This document shows, piece by piece, positions 3,221 through 56,132 of a stretch of 64,000 bases of DNA. Positions within the stretch are counted from its first letter, which is position 1. Each line of letters starts with the position of its first letter. The translations under genes were made by a program, and so were the position numbers. Source of the DNA: Pseudomonadota bacterium (GTDB lineage Bacteria > Pseudomonadota > Gammaproteobacteria > Xanthomonadales > Xanthomonadaceae); the NCBI GenBank assembly GCA_049324395.1, contig JBMOOY010000056.1, forward strand, positions 518-64,517. Direction: 5' to 3'. The notes under the pieces are model-generated. The model was not told where the DNA came from and made no database searches. It saw only the letters and a program-made list of their open reading frames with translations.

Positions 3221-3589
3221 CAGGCGATGCAGCAGATGAGACGGCCGCAGGCGTCGGCGGCGCCCCGACATCGTGCGCGACCATCGCGATAGTGCGCGCC
3301 GACCGGGCACCGGGGCATGCGGCGCCGCGATCGGCCCCGCATCCGGCTCACGCCAACCCGACACGGGCACGGGCGCCGCGCCCAGGACGCAGCGCATCTC
3401 CGCCAACGACCTGCAGCCCCGCGCTTCTTCGCCGACCCTGTCGTTCTTTTTGCGATCAGATCCTTGACCGCCGCGTTGTCCAACGCGGTTCCCCGTAGAT
3501 CGCATCAGGGTTGCGTCTAAGGACGTTTCGGTGGTGCGCTGCCGCTTCCGCCAGGGCTGTATGATTCCGATGGGCACAGGGGAGGCTCC

Positions 3590-6500
3590 ATGCGCAGGGA
3601 CGGCGTCGGGACGCAGGGGCGCGTCTTCGGTTGGGTGGTCGGATTGGCGGCGATGTGCGCGAGCGCGCTCGCGGCGCCGACGGCTGCGCGGGTGGAGGTG
3701 TCGTCCGGTCTCGCGCTCGATCCCGCGCCGGAGCCGCGTTTCGTGCGCTTCGGGGCGGAACAGGGGTTGCCTGCGCTCCTCAACGATATGGTGGTCGACC
3801 GGCGCGGCGATCTCTGGCTCGCGACAAGCGACGGGCTCGCGCGCTACGACGGCGACGGGTTCCGGTTCTGGCGTCGCACGATCGGTTCCGATGCGTCCCT
3901 GCAGCAAAACGACGTGATGGCGCTCGCCCTGGACGTCGACGACAGGTTGTGGGTCCTCAACTCGGGTGGGCTCGTGGTGCTCGACCGCGCGCGTCGCGGC
4001 ATCGCGCAGATCGTGTTCGACGGCGAACATGCGGTCTGCGGCCGCGAGATCGCCGCGATGGCGGCCGATCCGGAGGGCGGCGTGCGCATCGGCACCTATG
4101 ATGGCGCCGTGTGCGCGATCGGGCGCGATGGACGCATCCGTCGGCTCCTGCCTGCAGACGGCGGGGCGGGGCTCGGCGCCAGCGCGGTGGTGTTGCGGTC
4201 GCTGCCCGACGGACGCTGGCTGATCGCCACCGATGCGGGCCTGTGGCGTCTGCACGGGACGCGGCTGGAACCGGTCGCGCCGGAGCGCCTCGGCGACGCG
4301 TACGTGTTCGCGATCACCGACGACATCGACGGCGGCCTGTGGATCGGCACCGATCGCGGCCTGTTCGCGATGGCGCAGGACGGCACGATCCGTCCCGCAC
4401 CGTGGCGATTGCCCGAACTGGCGAACAACGCGGTCGTCCGTCGCGATCCGCAGGGGGGTTATTGGATCGGCACCGCCGCCGGACTGTTCCGCGCCGTTTC
4501 GCGCGACGCGCCCGCGTTGCCCGTGCATGGCCGTCGTCACGCCGATGGGCTGAGCAGCGGCGTCTTCGGCATGCTCATCGATCGCGAAGGCGGACTCTGG
4601 GCGGCCTCGTATTCGCAGGGACTGTCGTATCTGCCGCCGGGTCACGCGCGCTTCGCCAGCATCGACGAGATCGACGGCGTGCCGCTGGAGCGCATCGATC
4701 CGGCGGCGGCGATCGGCGACGGCGCGGGCGGTTTCTGGATCGTCGGCAGCCGCAGGCTCTACGCGCTGCCTGCGGGCGCATCGCGACCGCAGGCGGTCGT
4801 CGATGCGAGCGCGCTCGGCGTGGAATGGCTGCTCGCCGCGACCCGATGCGCCGATGGACGCCTGTGGCTGGCCAGCTTCGATCGCGCGTTCGGTTTCGAC
4901 CCGCGTTCGAAGCGCGTCGGACCGACGATCCGTTATCCCGACGACGGATCGCACACGCCGCACTCCCTGTGGTGCGATTCCGCGGGGCGATTGTGGGTCT
5001 CGCTCTACGGCGGCGCCCTGCGCGTGCACGACCGCGATGGCCGGACGCATCGCGCGCTCGCGGCCGAGGCCGTGCTCGGTGGTCCGGTCGCGGATTTCGC
5101 GCGACTCGACGCCGGCCCCGACGGCGTGCCGTGGACCAGAGACGTTCAAGGGTTGCGGCGATGGGACGGTCGTCGCTTCGTTCCGGTCGCGCTGCCCGGG
5201 GGCGAACGCGTGGACGCCTTTGCGTTCGTTGCGCCGCGAACGCTGTGGGTGGCGCGCTACGGCAGTCTCGAACGCTACGAATGGCGCGACGGGCGGGCGC
5301 GGCTGCGCGAACGCATCGACGGCGAAGCGCTGCCCCCGGTGCAGGTCGCCGGCATGCTCGCGTCGGCCGGGCAACTGTGGATGACCACGCCGCGCGGTCT
5401 GCTGCGTTTCGAACCTGCGTCCGGACGCGTGCGGATGTTCGGGGTGCGCGATGGTCTGCCCGACATCGACTTCGCGCTTGGGCCACCGGTGCAGAATGCG
5501 GTCGGGCCTGCGCTCGCCCTCTCCAAGCGCGGCATCGTCCTGTTCGATCCGGGCTTGTCGCTGCCGCCGCCGCGCGCGCCGGCGCTGTCGGTGGAAGCCA
5601 TCGACCTGCGACGCGGCGAAGACACGATCGCGTTCGAGGACGACGGTGCGGCCGTGACGATGCGCCCGGGCGACCGCGATCTGCGGGTGGCCGTGCGTGT
5701 GCGCTCGCTCGCCGATCCCGCCGCGCATCGTTACCGCTTCCGACTGCGCGGTTACGATCCGGACTGGGTCCGCCAGGGCGAGCGCGGCGAACGCGGCGAG
5801 CGCGTGTTCTCGTCGCTGCCGCCGGGTCGCTACGCGCTCGAGTTCCAGGGCGCGGACGCAGACGGCGTGTGGTCGTCGACGTACCGGATTCCGATCCTCG
5901 TCGAAGCGCCTTGGTGGCGACGCTGGTGGGCGCTGCTGCTCTATGCGACGCTCGCATCGGCGCTGGTGTGGTGGCTCGCCTATCTGGATCGCGTGCGCCT
6001 GCGCCGCAATCACAACTACCAGTTGATCAAGCAGAAGCGCGAACTCGCCGAACAGGCGTCGCTGGCGAAGAGCCGGTTCCTCGCCAACCTCGGCCACGAG
6101 ATCCGCACGCCGATGACCGGCGTCCTGGGCATGAGCGAACTGCTGCTGTCGACCCCGCTGGATGCGCGACAGCAGGATCGCATCCATGCGATCCGCCGCG
6201 CCGGCGAGCATCTGCTGCGATTGGTCAACGATGCCCTCGACCTCGCGCGCATCGAGGCCGGGCGCTTCGAACTCGACGAGGCCGATTTCGCGCTCGACGC
6301 CATCGTCGAGGATGTCGTCGGCCTGATGCGGCCGCTCGCGGAACGCAAGGGTCTGCGCTTCGTCGCGACCGTCGACGCCGATGTCCGTGGCGGTTGGCGC
6401 GGCGATCCCACCCGCGTGCGCCAGATCCTGCTGAATCTGCTCGGCAATGCGATCAAGTTCACCGAGCGCGGCGAGGTGTCGCTCGCGATCGCGTCGCTGG

Positions 6501-7159
6501 CGCCGCGCGGTCTGCGCTGCGTCGTCTGCGACACCGGGCCGGGTCTGGATGCCGAACAGCAGCGTCGACTGTTCCGCCGTTTCGAGCAGGCCGAAGGCGC
6601 GCGGACCGCCAGTCGTTACGGCGGCAGCGGGCTGGGGCTCGCGATCTGCCAGGAACTTGCGGTGGCGATGGGCGGCGGGATCGAGCTGTCGAGCGCGCCG
6701 GGCGAGGGCGCATGTTTCACCGTGCGTCTGCCGCTGGCGCCCTCGGCCGCGCCGATCGAGCTGCCGCCGGCCCCGTACCGCGAAGCCGCCGCGCGCGACG
6801 TGCTGCTGGTGGAGGACGACCCCATCGTCGCCGACGCCCTCACCGGCCTGCTGCAGACGCAGGGGCATCGCGTCGTGCACGCCGGCCATGCGCTCGCGGC
6901 GATGACCGCCCGCGCGACGCGGACTTTCGATCTGGCCTTCGTCGATCTCGATCTGCCCGGCATGGATGGTCTCTCGCTCGCCCGGCAACTGCGCGCGCAG
7001 GGCTTCGATCGGCCGTTGATCGCGATCACCGCCCGCGCCGACGCCGAGGCGGAGCCGCAGGCGATGGACGCGGGTTTCGATGCGTTCCTGAGAAAACCGC
7101 TGACCGGGACCCTGTTGGCGGAGGCGATGCTGCTCGGCGCCGGAGAAACGGCCCGGTGA
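3590..7159 (+). CDS. Hybrid sensor histidine kinase/response regulator with beta-propeller and Y_Y_Y sensor region
   Basis: Signal peptide, repeated GGLWIGT-type propeller repeats, YRFRLRGYD, TM segment, H-box GHEIRTPM, LLGNAIKFT, DTGPG, GSGLGL, C-terminal receiver (LLVEDD, FVDLDLP, KP). Confidence 0.93.
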   Translation: MRRDGVGTQGRVFGWVVGLAAMCASALAAPTAARVEVSSGLALDPAPEPRFVRFGAEQGLPALLNDMVVDRRGDLWLATSDGLARYDGDGFRFWRRTIGSDASLQQNDVMALALDVDDRLWVLNSGGLVVLDRARRGIAQIVFDGEHAVCGREIAAMAADPEGGVRIGTYDGAVCAIGRDGRIRRLLPADGGAGLGASAVVLRSLPDGRWLIATDAGLWRLHGTRLEPVAPERLGDAYVFAITDDIDGGLWIGTDRGLFAMAQDGTIRPAPWRLPELANNAVVRRDPQGGYWIGTAAGLFRAVSRDAPALPVHGRRHADGLSSGVFGMLIDREGGLWAASYSQGLSYLPPGHARFASIDEIDGVPLERIDPAAAIGDGAGGFWIVGSRRLYALPAGASRPQAVVDASALGVEWLLAATRCADGRLWLASFDRAFGFDPRSKRVGPTIRYPDDGSHTPHSLWCDSAGRLWVSLYGGALRVHDRDGRTHRALAAEAVLGGPVADFARLDAGPDGVPWTRDVQGLRRWDGRRFVPVALPGGERVDAFAFVAPRTLWVARYGSLERYEWRDGRARLRERIDGEALPPVQVAGMLASAGQLWMTTPRGLLRFEPASGRVRMFGVRDGLPDIDFALGPPVQNAVGPALALSKRGIVLFDPGLSLPPPRAPALSVEAIDLRRGEDTIAFEDDGAAVTMRPGDRDLRVAVRVRSLADPAAHRYRFRLRGYDPDWVRQGERGERGERVFSSLPPGRYALEFQGADADGVWSSTYRIPILVEAPWWRRWWALLLYATLASALVWWLAYLDRVRLRRNHNYQLIKQKRELAEQASLAKSRFLANLGHEIRTPMTGVLGMSELLLSTPLDARQQDRIHAIRRAGEHLLRLVNDALDLARIEAGRFELDEADFALDAIVEDVVGLMRPLAERKGLRFVATVDADVRGGWRGDPTRVRQILLNLLGNAIKFTERGEVSLAIASLAPRGLRCVVCDTGPGLDAEQQRRLFRRFEQAEGARTASRYGGSGLGLAICQELAVAMGGGIELSSAPGEGACFTVRLPLAPSAAPIELPPAPYREAAARDVLLVEDDPIVADALTGLLQTQGHRVVHAGHALAAMTARATRTFDLAFVDLDLPGMDGLSLARQLRAQGFDRPLIAITARADAEAEPQAMDAGFDAFLRKPLTGTLLAEAMLLGAGETAR

Positions 7160-7729
7160 TCGCGGACGTGCGAACCACGCATGGCCATCGACGTCGTCGA
7201 TTGGCGGTCGTCGGTGCGCGTTCAGTGCGGGCCGTGGCGATTGATGTCGTCGATGAAGGGGGCGTCGCTTTCGCGATCGAGGATCGGACGCGATTTCGCA
7301 TCGGATGATCGACGCCGTCGATCATGCGTCGTGCGCACGAGCGCATCGGTTCGCGCGCTTCGGTCGTGCGCCGCATCCGTCCCGAACGCGCATGATCGCG
7401 CGTCCTGCAAAATGCACGAATCCGCGTCGCGATCCTGTGACGCGCGATGCGCTCATCGCGTGCGTCTCGTAAGGCATCGCGTTTGATGCAGGGCCGCTTT
7501 CGCGCGGGATTCAAGAAGTGCGATGGTCGTCGACGAAGACGCATGCCGGGATCAACACCATTGCGGCCGAATCGACGGAGTCGTATCTCGTCCCCGATCG
7601 ATTCACGAAGGCTTCGATGGATCCTCCCGCCGATGGCGGTCGGGATCGGGCTTCTCTTCTCCGCGCGCGCAGCCGGGCGACAGCCCGGAGCGAACGGGAA
7701 TCGCCACACGACAATCAGGAATTCGTCAC

Positions 7730-38220: not shown

Positions 38221-39882
38221 TCACTTCAGCGCCTTGAAGCGCAGGCGGTGCGGCTTGGCGCCTTCCTCGCCGAGGCGGCGTTTCTTGTCTTCCTCGTATT
38301 CGCGGTAGTTGCCCTGGAAGAACTCGACGTGCGAGTCGCCTTCGAAGGCCAGGATGTGGGTCGCGATGCGGTCGAGGAACCAGCGGTCGTGCGAGATCAC
38401 GAAGGTGTTGCCGGGGAATTCCAGCAGCGCGTCTTCGAGCGCGCGCAGGGTTTCGATGTCGAGGTCGTTCGACGGTTCGTCGAGCAGAAGCACGTTGCCG
38501 CCCTGCAGCAGGGTCTTGGCGAGGTGCAGGCGACCGCGTTCGCCGCCCGACAGCGAGCCGACCATCTTCTGCTGGTCCTGGCCCTTGAAGTTGAAGCGGC
38601 CGATGTAGGCGCGCGACTGGATCTCGACGCCGTTGATGTTGAGGATGTCGAGGCCGCCGGAGACTTCCTGGAAGACGTTGTGGTTGCCTTCGAGCTTGTC
38701 GCGGCTCTGGTCGACGTAGGCCAGCTTCACCGTCGGACCCTTGACGATCTCGCCCTTGTCCGGCTTCTCGATGCCCATGAGCATCTTGAACAGCGTCGAC
38801 TTGCCGGCGCCGTTGGGGCCAATGATGCCGACGATCGCGCCCGGCGGCACCAGCATGTTGAGGTTGTCGATCAGCAGGCGGTCGCCGAACGACTTCGACA
38901 CGCCCTTGAACTCGATCACCGAGTTGCCCAGGCGCTCGCCCGGCGGGATGAAGATTTCGTTGGTCTCGTTGCGGCGCTGGTATTCCTGCGACTGCAGTTC
39001 TTCCAGGCGAGCGAGACGCGCCTTGCCCTTGCTGCGGCCGCCCTTGGCGTTCTGGCGCGACCACTCCAGTTCGCGCGCGATCGCCTTCTGGCGCGCCTTC
39101 TCCTGGTTTTCTTCCTGCTTCAGGCGCTCGTCCTTCTGGACCAGCCATTCGGTGTAATTGCCCTTCCACGGAATGCCGCGGCCGCGGTCGAGTTCGAGGA
39201 TCCACTCGGCGGCGTTGTCGAGGAAGTAGCGGTCGTGGGTGACCGCGACCACGGTGCCCGGGAAGCGGGCGAGGAACTGTTCCAGCCACTCCACCGACTC
39301 GGCGTCGAGATGGTTGGTCGGTTCGTCCAGCAGCAGCATGTCCGGCTTGCTCAGCAGCAGGCGGCAGAGCGCGACGCGGCGCTTTTCGCCGCCGGAGAGC
39401 GTGGAGATCTTCGCGTCCCACGGCGGCAGGCGCAGGGCGTCCGCGGCCACTTCCAGCTGCTGTTCCAGCATGTGCGCGTCGCCGGAGGCGAGGATCGCTT
39501 CGAGACGCTGCTGTTCTGCGGCGAGCTTGTCGAAGTCGGCGCCTTCCTCGGCGTAGGCGGCGTAGACCGCGTCCAGCGCGGCCTGGGCCTGGAGGACCTC
39601 GCCGACGCCTTCCTCGACCGATTCGCGCACGGTCTTGTTCGGATCGAGTTCGGGCTCCTGCGCCAGGTAGCCGACCTTGATGCCCGGTTGCGGGCGGGCT
39701 TCGCCCTGGAAGTCCTTGTCGACGCCGGCCATGATCTTCAGCACGGTCGACTTGCCGGCGCCGTTCAGGCCGAGCAGGCCGATCTTCGCGCCGGGGAAGA
39801 AGGACAGCGAGATGTCCTTGATGATCTGGCGCTTCGGCGGCACGGTCTTGCTGACGCCGTTCATGGTGTAGATGTATTGCAT
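38221..39882 (-). CDS. ettA: Energy-dependent translational throttle protein (ABC-F)
   Basis: MQYIYTMNGVSK, two ABC domains (GLNGAGKST; GPNGAGKST), FQGNYREYEEDKKRR. Confidence 0.98.
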   Translation of the reverse strand: MQYIYTMNGVSKTVPPKRQIIKDISLSFFPGAKIGLLGLNGAGKSTVLKIMAGVDKDFQGEARPQPGIKVGYLAQEPELDPNKTVRESVEEGVGEVLQAQAALDAVYAAYAEEGADFDKLAAEQQRLEAILASGDAHMLEQQLEVAADALRLPPWDAKISTLSGGEKRRVALCRLLLSKPDMLLLDEPTNHLDAESVEWLEQFLARFPGTVVAVTHDRYFLDNAAEWILELDRGRGIPWKGNYTEWLVQKDERLKQEENQEKARQKAIARELEWSRQNAKGGRSKGKARLARLEELQSQEYQRRNETNEIFIPPGERLGNSVIEFKGVSKSFGDRLLIDNLNMLVPPGAIVGIIGPNGAGKSTLFKMLMGIEKPDKGEIVKGPTVKLAYVDQSRDKLEGNHNVFQEVSGGLDILNINGVEIQSRAYIGRFNFKGQDQQKMVGSLSGGERGRLHLAKTLLQGGNVLLLDEPSNDLDIETLRALEDALLEFPGNTFVISHDRWFLDRIATHILAFEGDSHVEFFQGNYREYEEDKKRRLGEEGAKPHRLRFKALK

Positions 39883-40147
39883 GGGGGCTCCGGTCGTGCG
39901 CGGCGCACGATGTCGGGACAGCGGCGGCCGCGGGTGCGGACGGCGAAGGCCTGCCGTTGGGAGAGCAGGGGCCGTCGGGGATTCGGGGAATGGCGGAATT
40001 ATCGCCGATCCCGTCGGAGCCGTCACGTCGCAGGGGTGCGGCCGTAGGGCCGCGGAGGCCGGTCGACGGCATCGTCGAGGGAATAAATCCCTGCGGCGCT
40101 TCGTTCTCTCGTCCACACCGGCGCGCAGGGCGCCGAGGAGACGATGG

Positions 40148-41275
40148 ATGGCGACCGTGCCCCGGCAGCGAATGTTCGACCCGACCTCCAGCGACCACGG
40201 CCTCCGGCCGGGCACCGGCCCCGCCTCGGGGACGATCGGCGGGTCCGACCGCGGATTCGCCCGCCTGGAGGCGGCCAAGCGCGGGTTCTGCCTGCGTCGG
40301 GTCGACGTGCGGGTGGCGACCCTGCTCGGTCGGCAATATGCGCCCGAGGCGGGCAGCCTGTTCCTGGCGCGGGTGACCGAGCTGGGCCACCACACCCGGA
40401 TCGAATTGCCCGACGGCCGGCGCGCGCGCCTCTTCGCGGGCGACGAGGTGGTGGCCTGCTACGGCCACCGCTATGCGCCCGACCAGTACGGCATCCGGGT
40501 GCCGGAGCACATGCAACGCTGCGCGCTGGCGACCAGCGGCGGCGTGGCGGGCGAACTGGAAAGCCGGCACGACGCCGTGGGCAGGCCGACGATGCTGCAA
40601 CCGATCGGCATGCTCGGCGATCTGTCGGGCGCGCCGTTGAATCTGACGCGCTTCGCGCTGCCTCCGGTCGAGCGCTGTCCGGTGCAGGTGCCGGTGTTCG
40701 CGGTGCTGGGTTCGAGCATGAATTCCGGCAAGACCACCACCGCCGCCTGCACGGTACGCGGTCTGACCAACGCCGGCATGCGCGTGGCCGCGGCCAAGAT
40801 CACCGGCACCGGATCGGGCGCGGATTACTGGCACATGCTCGACGCCGGCGCGATCGCGGTGCGGGATTTCAGCGATTGCGGCCTGCCATCCACCTTTCGC
40901 GTCGATCTGCAGACCTTGCAGCGCACGTTCTTCACGCTGCTTTCGGAGCTGCAGCGAAGCGCGCCGGACGCGATCGTGATCGAGATCTCCGATGGCCTGT
41001 TCCAGCGCGAGACCGCGATGATGGTGGCCGCGCCCTGGTTCCGCGACGCGGTCGACAAGGTGCTGCTGGCGGCGCCGGACGCGATGGCGCTGGCGACCGG
41101 CGTCGAGATCCTCCGCCGTCACGCGCTTTCGGTGGCCGCCCTGAGCGGGCTGGTCAGCCGCAGTCCGCTGGCGATGCAGGAGGCGGCGGAACAGACGGGC
41201 CTGCGCGTGCTGGACATCGCCGGCCTCGAAAGCCCGGAGATCGTCACGCCGCTGCTGTTCTCGCTCGGCCGCTGA
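40148..41275 (+). CDS. DUF1611-like P-loop protein
   Basis: LGHHTRIELPDGRRARLFAGDEVVACYGHRYAPDQY, Walker A GSSMNSGKTT, AAKITGTG, IVIEISDGLFQRET. Alternative start at 40172. Confidence 0.8.
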   Translation: MATVPRQRMFDPTSSDHGLRPGTGPASGTIGGSDRGFARLEAAKRGFCLRRVDVRVATLLGRQYAPEAGSLFLARVTELGHHTRIELPDGRRARLFAGDEVVACYGHRYAPDQYGIRVPEHMQRCALATSGGVAGELESRHDAVGRPTMLQPIGMLGDLSGAPLNLTRFALPPVERCPVQVPVFAVLGSSMNSGKTTTAACTVRGLTNAGMRVAAAKITGTGSGADYWHMLDAGAIAVRDFSDCGLPSTFRVDLQTLQRTFFTLLSELQRSAPDAIVIEISDGLFQRETAMMVAAPWFRDAVDKVLLAAPDAMALATGVEILRRHALSVAALSGLVSRSPLAMQEAAEQTGLRVLDIAGLESPEIVTPLLFSLGR

Positions 41276-41282
41276 GGTCGAC

Positions 41283-42926
41283 GTGGACGGCTTCCCCGCG
41301 CTCTTCGCAGGCCGGCGACGAACGTTGCTGCTGCGCCTGATCGCCAACGGCGTCGGCCAGGGCGCCGTCGCAGGCGCGTTCGCACTGGGACTGCGCGACG
41401 TGCTGGACGGCGATGCGGGCCTTTCGTTGCCGGTCGTCGTGGCGCTCTGGGGATCGGTGTTGGCGACCGGTACGCTGCGCTGGCTGGAGCGGGTCGATGC
41501 GGAGCGCCTCGGGCAGTCGTACATCGACCGCATCCGCCTGCGCCTGTTCGACCATCTGGGGCGGGTCGCCCCCGAGCGACTGCGTCGCATCCGCCATGGC
41601 GCGCTGTCGCTGCGGTTCGTGGGCGATCTCTCGGCGCTGCGGCTGTGGGCCAGTCGCGGGCTGGCGCGCGTGTGGACGGCCGGCGCGATGACGCTGGGCG
41701 TCGTCGCGGTGCTCGCGTGGCTGGACTGGCGCTTCGCGTGCGCGGCCGGCGGCGTGCTCGCGCTCGGCGCGCTCGCCGCGTACGTCGGCGCCGGCGCGCT
41801 GGACGCTTCGGTGCGCAGGGCGCGCAGACGCCGCGGACGCTTCGCCGCGGCGATCGACGAGCAGTTGTCGCGACTGCCGACGATCCAGGCCTATGCGCGT
41901 CGCGACGCCGAAAAGGCGGCGATCGTCGAACGCTCGCGTCGCGTGCGCCGCGCCGCGGTGGCGCTGGCGCATCGTTCCGGCCTCATGATCGCGATTTCCG
42001 CGACCGTCGTCGGCACGTCGACCTTGTCGGTCGCGCTGATCGGTCATTCCGATGCGACGCATTCCCGCGGCACGCTGCTGGCGGCGCTGCTGCTGGTGTC
42101 GCTGCTGGCGACGCCCCTGCATCGCCTGGGACGGGTGTTCGAACTGTGGCGTTCGGCGATCGTGGCCCGGGAAAAAGTGCGTTCGCTGCTCGAGATCGCG
42201 CCGCTGGCGAGCCCCGGCGCGGAGGTCGCGCCGCTGCCGAAGGGCCCGGGTGCGATCGAATTCGCGCAGGTCGCGATTCCGGGATGCCCGACGCCGCTCG
42301 ATGCCGTCGTGGCGCCGGGCGAGCGCGTGCTGATCGCCTCCGATCCCGGCATCGAGGCGTCGCTGTTGCTGTGGGCGTTGCCGCGGCTGACCGATGCGGT
42401 GACCGGAACGATCCGCATCGACGGACGCGACATCGCGGAAGCCGCGCCCGGTTCGCTGCGACGCGCGGCGGTCCTGGTCAGCGAGAGCCTGCCGCTGCTG
42501 CGGGGCAGCCTGATCGACAATCTGCGCTACCGCGCGCCGGGCGCGCGTCTCGACGAGATCGATCGCATCCTGGATCGCTGCGGGCTGCGCGAGGCCGTCG
42601 AGCGAATGCCGCGCGGACTCGAAACGCCGCTCGGCAGCGATGGATTCGGGCTCGCGCGCGCGGAGCGCTGGCGTCTGCGCTGGGCGCGGGCGTTGCTCGG
42701 GCGGCCGCGGATCCTGCTGTTCGAGGACGTCGACGCGCAGATCCAGGGCGAGAACCGCGATGCCTTCTTCGCGATGCTGGAACGGTTCCGCGGCACCGTG
42801 CTGATGACCGGGCGCGACGGCGCCGACTGGCCGCGCACGATCCGGCGGTGGCGGTTGTCGACGGCCGCTCCGATGCGGGCGGGCGGGAGCTCCCCGGCGA
42901 CCCTTCTCGAAAGGCACGGCACATGA
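41283..42926 (+). CDS. ABC exporter-type fused TMD-NBD protein with degenerate ATPase motifs
   Basis: ABC TM domain (RIRLRLFDHL, LRFVGDL) followed by NBD scaffold (GTIRIDG, LIDNLRY, ARALL..P.ILL), but Walker A, signature, Walker B and H-switch are altered. Confidence 0.85.
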   Translation: MDGFPALFAGRRRTLLLRLIANGVGQGAVAGAFALGLRDVLDGDAGLSLPVVVALWGSVLATGTLRWLERVDAERLGQSYIDRIRLRLFDHLGRVAPERLRRIRHGALSLRFVGDLSALRLWASRGLARVWTAGAMTLGVVAVLAWLDWRFACAAGGVLALGALAAYVGAGALDASVRRARRRRGRFAAAIDEQLSRLPTIQAYARRDAEKAAIVERSRRVRRAAVALAHRSGLMIAISATVVGTSTLSVALIGHSDATHSRGTLLAALLLVSLLATPLHRLGRVFELWRSAIVAREKVRSLLEIAPLASPGAEVAPLPKGPGAIEFAQVAIPGCPTPLDAVVAPGERVLIASDPGIEASLLLWALPRLTDAVTGTIRIDGRDIAEAAPGSLRRAAVLVSESLPLLRGSLIDNLRYRAPGARLDEIDRILDRCGLREAVERMPRGLETPLGSDGFGLARAERWRLRWARALLGRPRILLFEDVDAQIQGENRDAFFAMLERFRGTVLMTGRDGADWPRTIRRWRLSTAAPMRAGGSSPATLLERHGT

Positions 42927-43816
42927 GCGAAACCATCCTCCTTCCGAAGCCGGCGGGCCGCGGGACGCATCCCTACGCGAGAACGCCGGACGGAATTCCC
43001 GAGTGCAGTTACTTCGTCCATCGTCCGCAGGGCGAGCACGACCGCAGCCGGCTGCTGGTCGCGGTGCACGGCATCACCCGCAACGCGCTCGAACACGCGA
43101 TGGTGTTCCGTCGCTGGTCGGAACGACTGGGCGTCGCGGTGGTCGCGCCGTTGTTCCCGCGCGCGGGGTATCGGCGCTACCAGACCCTCGAAGGCCGCAG
43201 GGGCATCCCGGCCGCGGACGAGGCCTTCGACCGCATCGTCGAAGACGCGTGCCGTCATCTGGGAATGGATGCGCCGGCCCTGCATCTGTTCGGATATTCC
43301 GGCGGCGGACAGTTCGCGCACCGTTACGCGTTCCGCCATCCGCGCGCGGTGTCGCGGATGGTCGTGGGCGCAGCGGGTTGGTACACGTTCCCGGACGACG
43401 ATCTCGCCTACCCGCTGGGCCTCGGTGCGCGCGGCGCGACGTCGGCGTTCGCGCACGCCGACGTCGTCGCGCGGTATCCGCCGACGCTGGTGGTGGTCGG
43501 TTCGCACGACCGCATGCGCGACGAGTCGCTCAACCAGGACCCCGACATCGACCTGCGTCAGGGCCTGCACCGCCGCGCCCGCGCGCGGCGATGGGTCGAC
43601 GCGATGGCGGGCGCGGCGCGGCGCGCGGGCTGCGCGTCGCCCTGCCGCCTGCACGTGCTGCGCGGCGCGAGCCATGCGTTCGGCCCTTCCGTTCGCAGCC
43701 ACGCCCTCGACCGCATCGTGGTCGGCTTCCTGTTTCCGGATGCCGACCTCGGCGCAGGCGATGCGCCGTGCGCCGAGGACGCACTCCTTCCCCGATCCCC
43801 CGGAGCATCGAAATGA
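42923..43816 (+). CDS. Alpha/beta hydrolase (esterase/depolymerase-like)
   Basis: VAVHG, nucleophile elbow GYSGG(GQFAHRY), late His in ASHAF. No signal peptide. Confidence 0.85.
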
Positions 43817-44994
43817 AGACTTCCCTGACGAGACTCTCCCTGCCCGTGGCGCTGGCGTGCCTGACCCCCGTGGCCGCGCAGGCCCAAGCCTTCGAGGCCG
43901 GCCGCGAGGGCCTGGTCTGGACCTCGGACGACGGCGACAGCGAACTGCGCATCGGCTGCCGCCTGCATTACGACAGCGTGCGTTTCGACGAGGACGTCAC
44001 GCCGCTCGACGACCGCAGCGATTTCCGTCGCGCCAGGATCGCGCTGTCCGGACGATTCGCGAAGGACTGGCGTTTCCGGGTCGAGAACGATCTCGGCGGC
44101 ACGTCGCAGGGCTGGAAAGGCGTGTGGTTGGCCTATCGCGGTTTCGACGACTGGGACCTGCGCGCGGGCCACCTGATCGCCCCGGTCGGCATGGAGCAAT
44201 CGATGAGCTCGGACGAGATGCCGCTGATGGAGCGTTCGCTGTCCTCCGCGCTGTCGCCCGGGTTCCTGGTCGGCGCGCAGGGCACCTACGCCCGCAAGGG
44301 CTGGACCGCGACGCTCGGCTATTACGGGGACCCGATCGACGGCGAACAGGACGCGTCCGGACAGGACGGGCGCGGATTCGCCGGACGTGCGACCTGGGCG
44401 CCGTTGCGCGGGAAGGGGCGGGTGGTGCATCTGGGCGCGTCCTTCGAGCAGCGCCGGGTCGATCCGGTCGCCGCGCCGGGCGGGTATCGGATTTCGTCCC
44501 GTCCCGGCGCGGGTCTGGCCAACGCTTCGCTGATCAATACCGGCGCCATCGCCGGCGTCGATCGCACGCGGACGATCGGCGTCGAAGCGGGCGTCGTGCT
44601 CGGTCCGGTCTCGGTGCTGGGCGAGGGCATGCGGATGACGGTCGCGCGCAGCGGCGCGCCGGATGCCGACTTCAGGGGCGGACACGTCACCGCGGCATGG
44701 GCGCTGACCGGCGAATCGCGGCGATACAACGAGGACACCGGCGTCATCGGCGGTCTCCGGCCGTCGCGACGCTGGGGCGCGCTGGAACTGGCGGCCCGCT
44801 ACGAGCGCCTCGACCTCGAAGACGCGGGCATCACCGGCGGCAGCGAGCGCAATCTGGCCTATGGCCTGAACTGGTACTTCGGACGCAATTTCCGGCTGAT
44901 GCTGAACCACGTCGATGCCGAAGCCGACCCGAACCGGAACGGGGTCCGGGAGTCGGTGGGAATCGACCAGATCCGGGCCCAGGTCGACTTCTGA
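43813..44994 (+). CDS. OprO/OprP-family anion-selective porin
   Basis: Signal peptide, [30 protein letters not shown], terminal aromatic (QVDF). Confidence 0.88.
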
Positions 44995-51707: not shown

Positions 51708-52175
51708 ATGCCGCACCATGAAGGCGATCTGCGCGCCCCCGAGGGCGCCCGCTTCGCGATCATCGCCAGTCGCTGGAATCCGCGCATCACCGACCGTCTG
51801 GTCGCCGGCGCGCGGCAGGCCTTCGCCGCGCACGGCGTGGCCGAGGAGGCGGTGGACGTGATCCGCGTGCCGGGCGCCTGGGAGATCCCGCTGGCGGCCG
51901 CGCGACTCGCCGCCGGCGGCGGCCACGCGGCACTGATCGGGCTGGGCTGCGTGGTCCGCGGCGATACCCGCCATTACGAACAGGTGGCCGACGGCTGCTC
52001 CGACGGCCTGATGCGGGTCTCGCTGGATTTCGGCCTGCCGGTCGCCAACGGCGTGCTCGCGGTGGATCGTTACGAGGACGCCGAGGCCCGCGCCGGCGGC
52101 AGTCACGGCAACAAGGGCGAAGAGGCGGCGCTGGTCGCGATCGAAATGGCGAATCTGCTGGAGAGACTGCCGTGA
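51708..52175 (+). CDS. ribH: Lumazine synthase
   Basis: [30 protein letters not shown]. Confidence 0.98.
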
Positions 52176-52642
52176 GCAAACCGCATCATCGCCGGCCGGA
52201 CGGCGTGGACCCCGTGCTGCGTACCCGCGCGCGTCGTCGCGCGCTGCAGGCGGTCTACGCGTGGCAGCTCTCCGGCGCCAGCGCGCGCGAGATCGTCACC
52301 CAGTTCGCGCACGAACAGGCGCGCGAGATCGCCGATCTGGCCTATTTCGAGGACCTGGTGCACGGCGTCGACGCGCACCGCGACGAACTGGACGCCGCGC
52401 TCGCGCCGTTCCTCGATCGCGGCATCGAAGAGGTCGATCCGATCGAACGCGCCGCACTGCGCATCGCCGCCTACGAACTGAAGCACCGCATCGACGTGCC
52501 GTATCGCGTGGTGTTGAACGAGGCCGTCGAATCGGTCAAGCGCTTCGGCTCCGAACACGGCCACACCTACGTCAACGGCGTCCTCGACCACGCTGCGGTG
52601 GCGCTGCGCGACGTCGAGGTGCAGGCGTCGCGGAGGACGTGA
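52172..52642 (+). CDS. nusB: Transcription antitermination factor
   Basis: [28 protein letters not shown]. Confidence 0.97.
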
Positions 52643-52651
52643 GCGTCCCGC

Positions 52652-53803
52652 TCATTCCTCGCTGACGCCGGGAATCGAGCCGTCCGCGCCGCGGATGCCG
52701 CCCGACACCGAGTCCCACCACGCCATCTGTTCCGGATCGTCGAGAAAGGCCGCGTAGGTCAGCGTCTCGGGAATCGCGTCGAGCGCATAATCCGCGCGCG
52801 CCTGCGCCAGCATCGCGGTCATCGCGCGCAGCAGCGGCAACTTCGGCACGTCGTGCTCGACGAACAGGAACTGCCCGGCCTGGTTGATCTCCAGGAAATG
52901 CAGGTCGTCGCGTTCGTCCACCACCAGGTCGATGCAGCCGAACGCCAGTCCCAGCGCGTCCATCAGCCGTCGCAGCGTCGTTTCCATGGCGGCCGGCAGC
53001 GGCACCGCGCGCGAGCGGGCGCGGTCGTCGATCGCCGAGGCGCGCCAGTCGACGACGCCATCGTCGGTCTCGGGCGTGTCGACGCGCACGGCGAACATCC
53101 GCTCTCCGACGACGGTCACGCGCAGGTCGTGGCGCTTGCGGACGCAGGCCTGGTAGATGCCGGGGCACAGCCGCAGCGACGCGTCGTCGCGCAGCGCGTC
53201 GGCGTCGACCACGCGGGCGTAGGTGCTGTAGATGCGCCCCTCGCCGTCGCGCCAGCTGTGGGTCGCGTAGGGTTTGTAGACCACGCGCTCGTGCGATGCG
53301 AAGAACGCGCGGATTTCGGTCGGGTCTGAAGACACCAGCGTCGCCGGGAAACGCAGGCCGCAGGCGTGCGCAACGCGCAGTTGCAGCAGCTTGTTTTCCG
53401 CGGCCGCGGCGCGGTCCGGGCGATTGACCCAGAACACGTCGTCGGCGGATGCGGCCACGGCGTGGACGTTGGCGACGTGCCGCTTCCACTCGTCGCGCAG
53501 GAAGTCGACGTCCGCCGGCGCCGCGCCGGGGAACGCATCGGGCAGGCGAGGGCGTCTGAACCACACGCTCGACGTGCGCCCCGACGCGATTCCGCCCGCG
53601 AAACGCAGGCCGTCGCGATCGTCGGCGTGCAGCGAGACGGATGCCATCGCCGTATCGGCGAGCGTCTTCGCCCAGATCGGGTGGAATCCGCTGTGGCGCA
53701 GGGCCCAGCACACCGCTGCGGCATGCACGTCGTGCGCGAGCCAGGAGAGCACGAGCGGTTGAGGGGCGCCCTGACCATCGGGGCGGTCGTGTCGATCGCG
53801 CAT
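52652..53803 (-). CDS. ATP-grasp RiPP (graspetide) synthetase
   Basis: VWFRRP, WVN...ENKLLQL...GLRFPATLVS, VYKP, IYQ...DLRVTVVG, DWR, GCIDL...LEINQAGQF. Confidence 0.9.
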   Translation of the reverse strand: MRDRHDRPDGQGAPQPLVLSWLAHDVHAAAVCWALRHSGFHPIWAKTLADTAMASVSLHADDRDGLRFAGGIASGRTSSVWFRRPRLPDAFPGAAPADVDFLRDEWKRHVANVHAVAASADDVFWVNRPDRAAAAENKLLQLRVAHACGLRFPATLVSSDPTEIRAFFASHERVVYKPYATHSWRDGEGRIYSTYARVVDADALRDDASLRLCPGIYQACVRKRHDLRVTVVGERMFAVRVDTPETDDGVVDWRASAIDDRARSRAVPLPAAMETTLRRLMDALGLAFGCIDLVVDERDDLHFLEINQAGQFLFVEHDVPKLPLLRAMTAMLAQARADYALDAIPETLTYAAFLDDPEQMAWWDSVSGGIRGADGSIPGVSEE

Positions 53804-53950
53804 GCGCGCTCCGTCGCGATGGGAAAACGGACTGTCGAACTTGAAAACGCCGCGCCCATGCAGCGGCGCGGCGTTCGGGCCGGGATCGTTGCGCAGATGC
53901 CTCGCGACCGTGGGTCGGACGGCGTGCGCGAATCCCCGGCCGCGGTGGCG

Positions 53951-54127
53951 TCAGATCGCCGGATCGCCCGGATCGCCCGGATCGTCGCCGTTCGGACCGG
54001 TGGCGTGGGTGTGGATCGGGATCCTGCCGCCCGAGACTTTCTCGATCTCCTGCGGGGAGAGTTCGCGCGCGACGGTGCGGGCGAGCGGGCGAGCGGCGTC
54101 CTGGGACGGGGCGTCGAACTTCGACAT
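53951..54127 (-). CDS. Graspetide precursor peptide (58 aa)
   Basis: AAGGAG RBS. Leader LARTVARELSPQEIEKVSGG, core RIPIHTHATGPNGDDPGDPGDPAI with Thr donors and Asp acceptors. Directly upstream of the ATP-grasp gene. Confidence 0.88.
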   Translation of the reverse strand: MSKFDAPSQDAARPLARTVARELSPQEIEKVSGGRIPIHTHATGPNGDDPGDPGDPAI

Positions 54128-54544
54128 TGCGTGCACTCCTTCATTCATCCTGAGGAAGATACGGCGCCGGAACGCTCCGGCGCTGTGCTTCGGATTCCGA
54201 TGCCATCGGCCGTCGAAGACGTGCGACGACGGCTTGCGACAACGGTTTGCAACGACGGCGATCGGAACCGGCGCCCGTACGCGCGTGCGCGCAGCGGGCA
54301 CGGATCGAGTCTATGCGCGGGGATCGGGCAGGGTGTTAACTTCCCGTAATCCGATGTGCCGCGGTTCGCACTCCGGCCGGATTTCGTCAAGCGCGACTTC
54401 GTCGAGCGCGACGTCGTCGAGCGTCGCGCGCACCGGCATTGCGGTGCCGATGCCGTCGCTGCGCGCGCCGACGGACCGATCCCGCGACAGGCGCGGGTCC
54501 GGCTGTGTCACCATGACGCGACCGAACCCCGCCCGTCGTCGCAG

Positions 54545-55510
54545 ATGTCCGCACGCGAATCCGAATTCGATCTCATCGCCCGCATCCGCGCGCGCGTCGC
54601 GTCGCGCGAGGACGTGGCGCTGGGCATCGGCGACGACGCCGCGCTCCTGCGCGTGCCGTCCGGTCGCGATCTCGTCGTCGCGATGGACACGCTCAACGCG
54701 GGCGTGCATTTTCCGGAAGAGACCGCGCCGGCCGATATCGGCTGGAAGGCGCTGGCGGTGAACCTGTCGGACCTCGCCGCGATGGGCGCGGATCCGGCGT
54801 GGTGCGCACTGTCGCTGTCGTTGCCCGTGTCCGATCCGGCCTGGGTCGACGGGTTCCTCGACGGATTCCTCGAACTCGCCGCGCGTCATCGCGTCGCGCT
54901 GATCGGCGGCGACACCACGCGCGGGCCGCTGTCGATCTGCGTCGCCGCGCACGGATTCGTCGAGCCGCGCGGTGCGCTGCGTCGGGATGCCGCGCGCGTC
55001 GGCGACGATCTGTGGGTCACCGGCACGCTCGGCGACGCCGCGGGCGCGTTGCGGCAATGGCGGCAGGGCGATGCGATGACGCCTGCGCTGCGCGCCCGGC
55101 TCGATCGCCCGACGCCGCGCGTCGCCGCGGGCCGCGCGTTGGCCGGCATCGCCCACGCCTGCATCGACGTCTCCGACGGACTGCTCGCGGATCTCGGCCA
55201 TGTCTGCGCGGCGAGTCGCGTCGGCGCGCGGGTCGATATCGACGCGCTCCCGGCATCTGCGACGCTGCGTGCGACCTTCGCGGAGGAGGTCCTGCGCACG
55301 CTGCAGGCCGCCGGCGGCGACGACTACGAACTGTGCTTCAGCGCGCCGAAGACCGCGCGGATGGCGGTGGAAGAGGCCCTGTCGCTCGCCGATGTCGCCG
55401 CGACGCGGATCGGCGTCGTCACCGCGGACGTCGGGCGGATCGAGACGGCCGATCGCGACGGTGCGCCGTGGTCGCCGCCCCGTCGCGGTTACGCGCATTT
55501 CGCAGAGTGA
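54545..55510 (+). CDS. thiL: Thiamine-monophosphate kinase
   Basis: SEFDLIAR, GIGDDAA, VNLSDLAAMGA, LIGGDT, IDVSDGL, GGDDYEL. Confidence 0.97.
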   Translation: MSARESEFDLIARIRARVASREDVALGIGDDAALLRVPSGRDLVVAMDTLNAGVHFPEETAPADIGWKALAVNLSDLAAMGADPAWCALSLSLPVSDPAWVDGFLDGFLELAARHRVALIGGDTTRGPLSICVAAHGFVEPRGALRRDAARVGDDLWVTGTLGDAAGALRQWRQGDAMTPALRARLDRPTPRVAAGRALAGIAHACIDVSDGLLADLGHVCAASRVGARVDIDALPASATLRATFAEEVLRTLQAAGGDDYELCFSAPKTARMAVEEALSLADVAATRIGVVTADVGRIETADRDGAPWSPPRRGYAHFAE

Positions 55511-55541
55511 ACGTCCCCGCGGTCGTCGCGAGCGGGCCGCG

Positions 55542-56132
55542 TTACCGGACAGCGAGGGCTTCGCGCACGCGCGCCCGCAACGCCGGCACCGCGTCGCGCT
55601 CGAACCACGGGTTGGCCTTGAACCAGCCGATGTTGCGCGGGCTGGGATGCGGCAGGGCGAAGAACCGCGGCAGGTACTCGGGATAGGCCGCCACGGTTTC
55701 GGTCAGCGAAGCCTTGCGCCTGCGGTCGAGGAAATACGCCTGCGCGTACTGGCCGATCAGCAGCGTGAGACGCACGTTCTCCAGCATCGGGACCAGGCGC
55801 GGATGCCAGGTCGCGCGGCATTCCGGGCGCGGCGGGGCGTCGCCGGCGCCCTGTTTGCCGGGATAGCAGAAGCCCATCGGCGCGATCGCGATCCGCGTCG
55901 TGTCGTAGAAGGCCTCGGGCGTCATCTCCAGCCAGTCGCGCAACCGCCTGCCGCTGGCGTCGTCCCAGGGAATGCCGCTGGCGTGCACCTTCGTGCCGGG
56001 CGCTTGTCCGACGATGAGCAGTCGCGCGCTCGCGCTCGCGCGCAGCACCGGCCGCGGACCGAGCGGCAATTGCGCTTCGCACAGCCGACAGGCGCGGATC
56101 TCCGCGAGCAGGGTATCCAGCGCCGCGCTCAC
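55542..56132 (-). CDS. Uracil-DNA glycosylase family protein
   Basis: CRLC, LIVGQAPG, PMGFCYPG, PHPSPRN. Confidence 0.9.
   Translation of the reverse strand: MSAALDTLLAEIRACRLCEAQLPLGPRPVLRASASARLLIVGQAPGTKVHASGIPWDDASGRRLRDWLEMTPEAFYDTTRIAIAPMGFCYPGKQGAGDAPPRPECRATWHPRLVPMLENVRLTLLIGQYAQAYFLDRRRKASLTETVAAYPEYLPRFFALPHPSPRNIGWFKANPWFERDAVPALRARVREALAVR

Follow-up and report, generated by a model that had tools for sequence, protein, structure and literature searches.

A probable thatisin-family graspetide operon, reduced in its exporter genes, between nusB and thiL

In the 64-kb stretch of DNA analysed here (the window), the interval between nusB and thiL holds, on the opposite strand, a gene for a small peptide and one for an ATP-grasp ligase. 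Do they form a minimal graspetide cluster, perhaps with rings of a new topology, as a sequence-only reading had proposed, or are they a reduced relative of a known system? ORFs, profiles and homologues agree on a graspetide precursor and an ATP-grasp macrocyclase at this site, and the ORFs, lengths and core composition given in the sequence-only reading were all correct. Very likely the two genes are an operon belonging to graspetide group 16, the thatisin family, from which the exporter genes have been lost. Its features, by position in the window, are as follows.

52172..52642, plus strand: nusB (TIGR01951, 4e-37; PF01029, 8e-32)
52652..53803, minus strand: ATP-grasp graspetide synthetase, predicted to form macrolactones (profile, structure and homology evidence)
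53843..53876, minus strand: GC-rich hairpin in the precursor-ligase interval, with a U tract after it (12-bp stem, -24.8 kcal/mol)
53951..54127, minus strand: precursor peptide gene (ORF, and homologues beside homologous ligases)
53954..54025, minus strand: core peptide RIPIHTHATGPNGDDPGDPGDPAI, 24 residues
53954..53984, no strand assigned: 9-bp tandem repeat, 3.6 copies, which codes for the (GDP)3 end of the core, fourth Asp included (TRF score 55, 95% matches)
54026..54127, minus strand: leader peptide, 34 residues, with GG at its end
54136..54142, minus strand: GAAGGAG, ribosome-binding site of the precursor gene, 8 nt from its ATG
54294..54357, minus strand: conserved upstream element CTTACGGGAAGTTAACACC...N...CATAGACTCGA (invariant columns in the alignment; equivalent in relatives to the 3' end of the exporter gene)
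54358..54544, no strand assigned: stretch of ~190 bp in place of the 3.6-kb hlyD and C39-ABC segment of relatives, comprising a deletion scar and the thiL 5' region (blastn to the related locus L004)
54545..55510, plus strand: thiL (TIGR01379, 6e-100; the match starts at residue 70 of the long ORF)

The nusB gene converges with the ligase gene, their stop codons being 9 bp apart, and thiL diverges from the precursor gene. The GTG at 54356, where a mechanically called ORF begins, was rejected as the thiL start; the true start is at 54545 (MSARESEF), where the homology boundary also lies. Logan contigs from run X1 tiled positions 51800-55800 with zero differences. Short joints among the Logan contigs were dismissed as 20-40-nt chance overlaps of GC-rich contigs.

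The precursor ORF runs from an ATG at 54127 to a TGA stop at 53953-53951 and encodes 58 residues, which read MSKFDAPSQDAARPLARTVARELSPQEIEKVSGG (leader) followed by RIPIHTHATGPNGDDPGDPGDPAI (core). The core contains two Thr and four Asp and is devoid of Ser, Lys and Glu. The AAGGAG core of the ribosome-binding site is unchanged in all seven aligned relatives, and the surrounding block TTCCTCAGGATGAnTGAAGGAGTGCAnGCAATG is common to five of the seven. The precursor gene is upstream, with 147 nt between its stop and the ligase start. Searches by tblastn found a precursor ORF beside a homologous ligase in 46 instances (E values from 1e-10 to 1e-26), a conservation that argues against a chance ORF. 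Across these 46 precursors the pattern RP..R..AREL...E.....GG, followed by T.ATG(PN)GDDP.DP, is invariant, with GG at positions -2/-1 kept in 44 of the 46. The leader of the window peptide ends in ...LSPQEIEKVSGG, in which the canonical hydrophobic and acidic positions are present; read as L(-12) S P Q E(-8) I(-7) E K V(-4) S G G, it has the residues of a double-glycine leader at the key positions. The match of TIGR03949 to this leader was weak (E = 0.013, under its cut-off). No second precursor and no second ligase copy were found in the 64-kb window.

The ligase ORF extends from an ATG at 53803 to a stop at 52652 and encodes 383 residues. NCBIfam models of ATP-grasp ribosomal peptide maturases matched it with E values of 5.7e-58, 2.8e-44 and 4.6e-43, all under their curated cut-offs. 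For TIGR04187 (the GRASP_SAV_5884 subfamily) the score was 196.6 bits against a cut-off of 350, indicating a homologue and not a member, and the scores likewise fell under the cut-offs of TIGR04185 and TIGR04184. All Pfam ATP-grasp matches were below the gathering threshold. The family assignment of the ligase is therefore by homology and not by a curated model. A profile search of the PDB with the ligase returned MdnB, MdnC, AMdnB, CdnC, PruB and PsnB only (E values from 6e-49 to 2e-19). The AlphaFold2 model of the ligase had a pLDDT of 88, and its best 32 Foldseek matches were MdnC, CdnC, AMdnB, PruB, MdnB and PsnB structures, with RimK and LysX trailing these graspetide macrocyclases by ~10 orders of magnitude. 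The catalytic and nucleotide-binding positions K138, K177, Q218, K223, R228, D252-W253-R254, E305 and N307 are invariant in a 20-sequence family alignment. Ester formation by the ligase, and its choice of the residues to be linked, are predictions from these sequence comparisons.

Thatisin is reported by Ramesh et al. (2021) to contain two interlocking Thr-Asp macrolactones. The ligase of the window is 52% identical over 370 residues (373 bits) to WP_057916645.1 of Lysobacter antibioticus. The usual EFI score formula takes the form bits x 0.301 - log10(383 x 373) here and, applied to this one pair, gives an alignment score of ~107. This is above the score of 70 at which the published graspetide network was divided into similarity clusters. 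WP_057916645.1 is the thatisin synthetase, placed in graspetide group 16 by the SI table of PMC13097080. The neighbouring thatisin precursor, WP_057916646.1, reads MSKQDVYSNNALPQDEAARPLARIAARELSLDEIAAISGG followed by KGDTTHATGPNGDDPGDPDFL. One residue separates it from the L. antibioticus precursor of locus L036, to which the window precursor is ~61% identical (tblastn). The window and thatisin share a 14-residue stretch of the core, THATGPNGDDPGDP, without a difference. The relation to thatisin that the sequence-only reading had suggested is thus much closer than it supposed, embracing a ligase of 52% identity, a conserved leader and the same 14-residue motif; comparison with the classified graspetide groups leads to group 16 by both ligase score and core motif.

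How the operon is expressed can be proposed from two conserved elements. In the element upstream of the precursor, GTTAAC and TAGACT are spaced 27-28 nt from start to start in 20 of the 25 upstream stretches of precursors in the nusB/thiL clade, and two of the other five are clipped at contig ends. In the related locus L004 the element spans the last codons and stop of the C39-ABC gene (TAG 5452-5454); transporter-less loci keep it as non-coding DNA. Its interpretation as a mere 3' stub of the exporter gene was rejected as a sole explanation, given its near-invariance in several transporter-less lineages. The element probably serves the precursor-ligase operon as promoter or operator, and transcription of the precursor would start there. 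With a 20-nt spacer from TTAACA to TAGACT it departs from the canonical sigma-70 promoter, and scans of 52400-54700 for sigma-70 promoters and for strict intrinsic terminators gave nothing. The hairpin between the two genes escaped the strict terminator scan because it has too few T residues in its tract. Most loci of the nusB/thiL clade have a comparable hairpin, in which the stem is the same and the loop varies, with TTTTCAT after it. The hairpin is probably a partial terminator or attenuator, by which read-through to the ligase would be curbed. Neither a riboswitch nor an integration-site tRNA came up in Rfam and tRNA scans over the full window.

The claim that no local peptidase or transporter accompanies the two genes holds for the entire window, in which neither a C39 peptidase nor a cognate HlyD was found. 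The only ABC ATPase-domain matches in the window are generic (25-31% identity) and fall at 38-43 kb, on a half-transporter without a peptidase and on an ABC-F protein. In the locus of L. antibioticus, in most relatives and in most loci at the nusB/thiL site, hlyD and a C39-ABC exporter gene are directly upstream of the precursor gene; the exporter of these relatives is an NHLM-type PCAT (TIGR03796, 3e-140). Alignment by blastn matched window positions 55516-54545 to positions 866-1840 of L004, and window positions 54357-52173 to positions 5408-7598. The thiL-proximal motif ATGGTGACACAG is found in loci with and without the transporter alike. In the ligase tree the nusB/thiL clade is monophyletic and the transporter-less members are scattered inside it, and the exporter module of the family has undergone repeated full losses as well as shortening of hlyD. 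Relatives without the transporter include JAYRSY01, JAEKKX01 and SSGH01, whereas Lysobacter hankyongensis JCM 18204, a cultured member of the clade, has it. The cluster is accordingly reduced and not primitively minimal, being derived from a cassette of hlyD, C39-ABC exporter, precursor and ligase genes at the same site. We propose that this four-gene cassette (hlyD, C39-peptidase ABC exporter, precursor and ligase) would have been inserted at the nusB/thiL site a single time, in a Lysobacteraceae lineage, and that the exporter pair would have been deleted later in the lineage of the window, as in several of its sisters. The leader with its double glycine would stay, and cleavage and export, if any, would be carried out in trans by a peptidase-containing transporter encoded elsewhere. 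One integration, repeated loss of exporter and peptidase, and a constrained ligase and precursor together make a small natural experiment on the need for dedicated export.

Another reading of the missing exporter is that the product has no dedicated export and either stays in the cytoplasm or periplasm to act there, perhaps by inhibiting a protease, or leaves by an unrelated general exporter, perhaps with its leader retained. Many graspetides are protease inhibitors. The exporter has been lost several times with precursor and ligase retained under constraint, the cassette is inherited vertically in the housekeeping row ribH-nusB-[cassette]-thiL, and the 64 kb hold no C39 peptidase, all of which would suit an internal role. 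We nevertheless regard this reading as unlikely. Transporter-less lineages keep GG together with L-12, E-8, I-7 and V-4, favouring cleavage by a C39-type peptidase from elsewhere; the visible sequence is 64 kb of a genome; and no activity for the thatisin family was found in the literature surveyed. A more specific proposal, which we consider doubtful, is that the nusB/thiL cassette is a vertically inherited, "domesticated" graspetide with a cell-associated role, for instance in regulation or as an endogenous inhibitor of proteases, and not a secreted weapon, its alleles being swapped between lineages by recombination in the conserved nusB and thiL flanks. It would draw on at least three to four losses of exporter and peptidase at the nusB/thiL site, with precursor and ligase under purifying selection. 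Were this proposal true, a dedicated exporter and leader peptidase would be dispensable in these protease-secreting bacteria.

That the two remaining genes became functionless after the deletion and are now being lost is improbable. The locus has lost its own hlyD and C39-ABC genes, the exporter module erodes repeatedly in the family, and a search for RNA-seq of the locus gave DNA metagenome runs only, as might be expected of a decaying remnant. Against this, both ORFs are intact, the ligase has every family-invariant residue, and conservation extends to the ribosome-binding site, the hairpin and the upstream element. Relative to the transporter-less locus L002, dN/dS was 0.23 for the ligase, within the range seen for the housekeeping genes on either side, 0.34 for thiL and 0.38 for the precursor, values that are comparative only because strong GC codon bias probably compresses dS. 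L001 and L002, with ligases ~17-19% different from that of the window, are transporter-less too, so this state must be long-lived. Moreover, in a published survey hlyD was near 52%, and an NHLM-type peptidase ABC transporter near 51%, of 107 group-16 clusters, the pair accompanying only ~52% of them. With its upstream element and hairpin kept and a ligase dN/dS of ~0.23, the precursor-ligase operon looks functional.

The ligase of this operon would recognise the leader through RPLARxxAREL...E....GG and, with ATP, would phosphorylate Asp side chains and close two Thr-to-Asp omega-ester macrolactones within T6-H-A-T9-G-P-N-G-D14-D15-P-G-D18-P. As this motif is identical in thatisin, the same rings are expected, and the ring connectivity is predicted to be like that of thatisin. 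The isomerising bond of thatisin is Asp14-Pro15 according to a review, with the core numbered from the residue after GG; the equivalent in the window is D15-P16. The only invariant ring-relevant residues of the 46 related precursors are two Thr and three Asp, and with three invariant Asp for two expected esters the sequence does not tell which two are used. The sequence-only reading had argued that a choice of two acceptors from four Asp might give a new topology, a step that is not supported: with five Asp and three Thr in thatisin itself, surplus acceptors are normal in the family, only T-x-A-T and D-D-P-x-D-P are invariant, and the fourth Asp of the window sits in a subclade-specific expansion of the 9-bp repeat. 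The third GDP is carried only by the window and L001-L003, and the other relatives end in GDPGS, GDPGT, ADPGS and similar tails. Macrolactones unlike those of thatisin, formed for instance through D21, are thus highly improbable: the third GDP does offer one more potential acceptor, and the N-terminal part of the core is RIPIH in place of the KGDTT of thatisin, but the 14 residues holding every family-invariant donor and acceptor are those of thatisin, the enzyme family cannot depend on a D21-type Asp when 42 of the 46 related precursors are without it, and a core with two Thr only and neither Ser nor Lys makes a further ring impossible. No new chemistry or mechanism is indicated.

Compared with known systems, the window leader resembles in its end and key positions the double-glycine leaders processed by peptidase-containing ABC transporters, as in class II bacteriocins and NHLP/Nif11 RiPPs; those systems differ in having the transporter, which the window does not encode. 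Microviridin biosynthesis (MdnA with MdnB and MdnC, group 1) is alike in ligase fold, catalytic residues and leader-dependent side-chain macrocyclisation, and MdnC (5IG9) was among the best structural matches of the ligase (E = 6e-24, TM 0.66-0.81). However, sequence identity is only 23-26%, the microviridin leader motif is PFFARFL, and two ligases act there, with formation of a Lys-Glu lactam; the window has one ligase, and only esters are possible in a core without Lys. Plesiocin (PsnA and PsnB, group 2) and the other graspetides with omega-esters only share with the window a single ligase that makes nothing but Thr-to-Asp/Glu esters. A PCAT is nearby in 31% and HlyD in 28% of group 2, often but not always. 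PsnB (7DRM, E = 2e-19) is the weakest solved relative of the ligase, and plesiocin has repeated hairpin-type core units where the window has a single non-repeated unit.

The closest counterpart is the cluster for thatisin and iso-thatisin of L. antibioticus ATCC 29479, from the same bacterial family, in which a single ligase gene is likewise directly downstream of a single small precursor gene on the same strand and the RPLARxxAREL...E....GG leader and THATGPNGDDPGDP core motif recur. The two loci differ in the upstream hlyD and C39-ABC exporter genes, which the window lacks, and in chromosomal place, the window cassette being at the nusB/thiL site. The cores differ on the N-terminal side of the motif (RIPIH in the window, KGDT(T) in thatisin) and on the C-terminal side (GDPAI and DFL, respectively), the window having one GDP repeat more. 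The 46 precursors set the minimal invariant leader and ring motifs of the thatisin family, which can be used in connectivity prediction and engineering, and the window core is a natural variant of the sole characterised group-16 graspetide, with another N-terminal segment and an added GDP repeat.

The precursor and ligase genes lie between nusB and thiL, where ORFs, flanking-gene models and ligase homology all agree with the sequence-only reading of a graspetide precursor followed by an ATP-grasp ligase. The counts given there were reproduced on re-reading of the ORF and sequence: 58 aa, with a 24-aa core containing two Thr, four Asp and no Ser, Lys or Glu. The ligase is convergent with nusB, their stop codons 9 bp apart, and the precursor is divergent from thiL, whose real start is placed at 54545 because the homology boundaries fall there. 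Logan contigs from the source run covered 51800-55800 with 0 differences from the window, and the gene arrangement is therefore no assembly artefact. In a run from a different freshwater metagenome, a related population lacks 13 bp at 54234, within the 5' region of the precursor, and differs from the window by 14 substitutions over 53941-54365.

Features of the window
38221-40395, minus strand: ABC-F type protein, two ABC domains and ABC_tran_Xtn linker; unrelated to the graspetide exporter
41283-42926, plus strand: peptidase-less ABC half-transporter; unrelated to the graspetide exporter
43003-44994, plus strand: phosphate-selective porin O/P homologue; unrelated to the graspetide exporter
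52172-52642, plus strand: nusB (TIGR01951, 4e-37)
53803 to 52652, minus strand: ligase ORF, 383 aa, after a 147-nt spacer from the precursor
53843-53876, minus strand: 12-bp GC stem, then U tract, between precursor and ligase (-24.8 kcal/mol)
53954-53984: 9-bp tandem repeat GATCCGGGC, 3.6 copies, encoding the (GDP)3 tail (TRF)
54127 (ATG) to 53951 (stop), minus strand: precursor ORF, 58 aa, leader MSKFDAPSQDAARPLARTVARELSPQEIEKVSGG, then core RIPIHTHATGPNGDDPGDPGDPAI
8 nt upstream of the precursor ATG, minus strand: ribosome-binding site GAAGGAG, from sequence
54294-54357, minus strand: upstream element of ~64 nt, GTTAAC and TAGACT at a 27-28-nt offset
54545 (start), plus strand: thiL, beginning MSARESEF (TIGR01379, 6e-100)

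The operon belongs to graspetide group 16, the thatisin family. The thatisin synthetase of Lysobacter antibioticus, WP_057916645.1, is assigned to this group (supplementary table, PMC13097080); exact-sequence look-up matched it to protein P0123, adjoined by the precursor WP_057916646.1. Over 370 residues the window ligase and this synthetase share 52% identity (373 bits), bearing out the link to thatisin proposed in the sequence-only reading. By our own conversion this is an alignment score of ~107, far over the published group-defining threshold of 70.

Pfam ATP-grasp matches to the ligase were all sub-threshold. The NCBIfam matches (TIGR04187, 5.7e-58; MvdC model, 2.8e-44; MvdD model, 4.6e-43) were all under the curated cut-offs, and the ligase is therefore a divergent relative outside those curated subfamilies. 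A PDB search with a profile of 20 family members returned exactly six distinct sequences, all graspetide macrocyclases: MdnB, MdnC, AMdnB, CdnC, PruB and PsnB. The same six made up the 32 best Foldseek matches to an AlphaFold2 model (pLDDT 88, pTM 0.87), with RimK, LysX and Ddl weaker by about ten orders of magnitude. Every family member keeps K138, K177, Q218, K223, R228, DWR 252-254, E305 and N307, which occupy the nucleotide, Mg and catalytic sites. The family also has a C-terminal extension of ~45 residues past the solved macrocyclases, helical in the model and closing with an invariant Glu, E383 (window 52652-52657; alignment A1).

At the L. antibioticus locus and most others, two genes stand ahead of the precursor on its strand: one for an HlyD-type adaptor (TIGR01843, 1e-26), the other for an ABC exporter of the NHLM type whose N-terminal domain is a C39 peptidase (TIGR03796, 3e-140). 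The nusB/thiL position is common to 25 loci, most with the full four-gene cassette. Neighbour joining groups their ligases as a single clade, which suggests that the cassette integrated once and was then inherited vertically. The window aligns to the Lysobacter hankyongensis locus (L004) either side of a 3.57-kb exporter segment, which is represented by ~190 bp in the window. No C39 peptidase or cognate adaptor was found in the whole 64-kb window, as the sequence-only reading had stated for the locus; the only ABC matches were the ABC-F protein and the peptidase-less half-transporter. The "minimal" cluster of that reading is correct in having two genes and no exporter, but this is not the original state: the operon is a reduced cassette that has lost its exporter genes. 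Transporter-less members (the window with L001 and L002; L019; L022; L024) are scattered over the clade, which implies a minimum of three to four separate losses. This agrees with a published survey of 107 group-16 clusters, where only about half had the transporter pair nearby.

hlyD is shortened in other lineages too, the L. antibioticus type included. At L033, L034 and L036 (the L. antibioticus type, to which the thatisin-producing locus belongs) and at L017, L018 and L021, the adaptor matches the full-length protein only over residues ~7-96 and 327-452; the L036 copy is an intact 195-aa ORF (2817-3404). This looks like an in-frame internal deletion recurring in two distinct regions of the tree.

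Identities between L002 and L004 are 95% for nusB, 93% for thiL and 76% for the ligase; between L002 and the window they are 88, 79 and 83%. The ligase identities among L001, L002, L004 and the window thus conflict with those of the flanks, suggesting allele exchange or strongly uneven rates. Cassette alleles may have been exchanged between lineages via the conserved nusB/thiL flanks. Of modest specialist interest are the cassette's fixed place between nusB and thiL, its repeated exporter losses and this possible exchange.

Simple decay of the reduced operon is unlikely. Both ORFs are intact. Compared with the transporter-less L002, the window gives a dN/dS of 0.23 for the ligase and 0.38 for the precursor (thiL, 0.34; nusB, 0.14). 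The GTTAAC/TAGACT element is nearly invariant over the clade (L001-L022) and lies 125-237 nt ahead of the precursor's ATG. In transporter-bearing loci it spans the last codons and stop of the exporter gene; its retention as non-coding DNA where the exporter is deleted suggests that it serves the precursor-ligase unit as promoter or operator. Its 20-nt spacer does not fit canonical sigma-70 spacing, and it is possibly read by another sigma factor or is a regulator site. The hairpin at 53843-53876 has a conserved stem and variable loop among relatives and is probably an attenuator, which would give surplus precursor transcript. Such attenuators are found in many RiPP operons.

The main alternative for a product with no exporter beside it is an unexported, cell-associated role. 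However, the double-glycine leader with its canonical L-12, E-8, I-7 and V-4 is kept in all transporter-less lineages of the clade, which favours cleavage by a C39-type transporter that would be encoded elsewhere.

The family scan, limited to a single genome for each species, gave 80 loci, with 46 instances of a homologous precursor immediately upstream of a homologous ligase. The leader pattern RP..R..AREL...E.....GG and core pattern T.ATG(PN)GDDP.DP are invariant among these, leaving only two Thr and three Asp as family-invariant donors and acceptors. The fourth Asp of the window core sits in a third GDP unit, made by the tandem repeat; among the aligned precursors, the window shares this unit with its three nearest relatives and no others. 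The repeat packs four GATC sites into 30 nt. At the position of thatisin Asp17, 39 of 44 precursors encode Asp as GAT, a synonymous conservation, although the ligase gene favours GAC 4:1. Four loci (L027, L030, L038 and L047) have two precursor genes with different cores beside one ligase, for example RPATTHATGPNGDDPADPGDLA and RPPPDHTHATGANGDDPSDPGV in L027. Distant ligase homologues (35-46% identity; L045, L047, L052 and L048-L080) occur in Rhodanobacteraceae and Myxococcota; an ARE[LI]S...GG leader is kept with unrelated cores, such as YATPGISNSPGGDGDRDMIN, and at some of these loci tblastn found no recognisable precursor. They may represent neighbouring, uncharacterised graspetide groups.

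The anatomy, homology and conservation of the operon, its exporter-gene loss and its selective constraint are direct observations; for the chemical steps we infer from established graspetide synthetase chemistry. The ligase would bind the conserved leader, convert Asp carboxylates into acyl phosphates and close two Thr-Asp omega-esters, on two of the three invariant Asp, within T6...T9...D14-D15-P-G-D18 (numbered from the first residue after GG).

The thatisin precursor has the leader MSKQDVYSNNALPQDEAARPLARIAARELSLDEIAAISGG and core KGDTTHATGPNGDDPGDPDFL. Counted from the residue after GG, its Asp14-Pro15 coincides exactly with the isomerising amide of thatisin described in a review, and window D15-P16 would be the counterpart of this cis/trans-isomerising bond. 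The window core has two Thr but neither Ser nor Lys, and so allows two esters at most. Given this maximum, and five Asp in the thatisin core against four in the window, the earlier proposal of a new topology from a choice of two among four Asp is not supported; the fourth Asp is itself confined to a subclade. We expect from the cores that the ring pattern is the same as in thatisin. A 14-residue core block, THATGPNGDDPGDP, is common to the two precursors with zero changes. The predicted window compound differs from thatisin yet has its whole conserved ring-forming motif.
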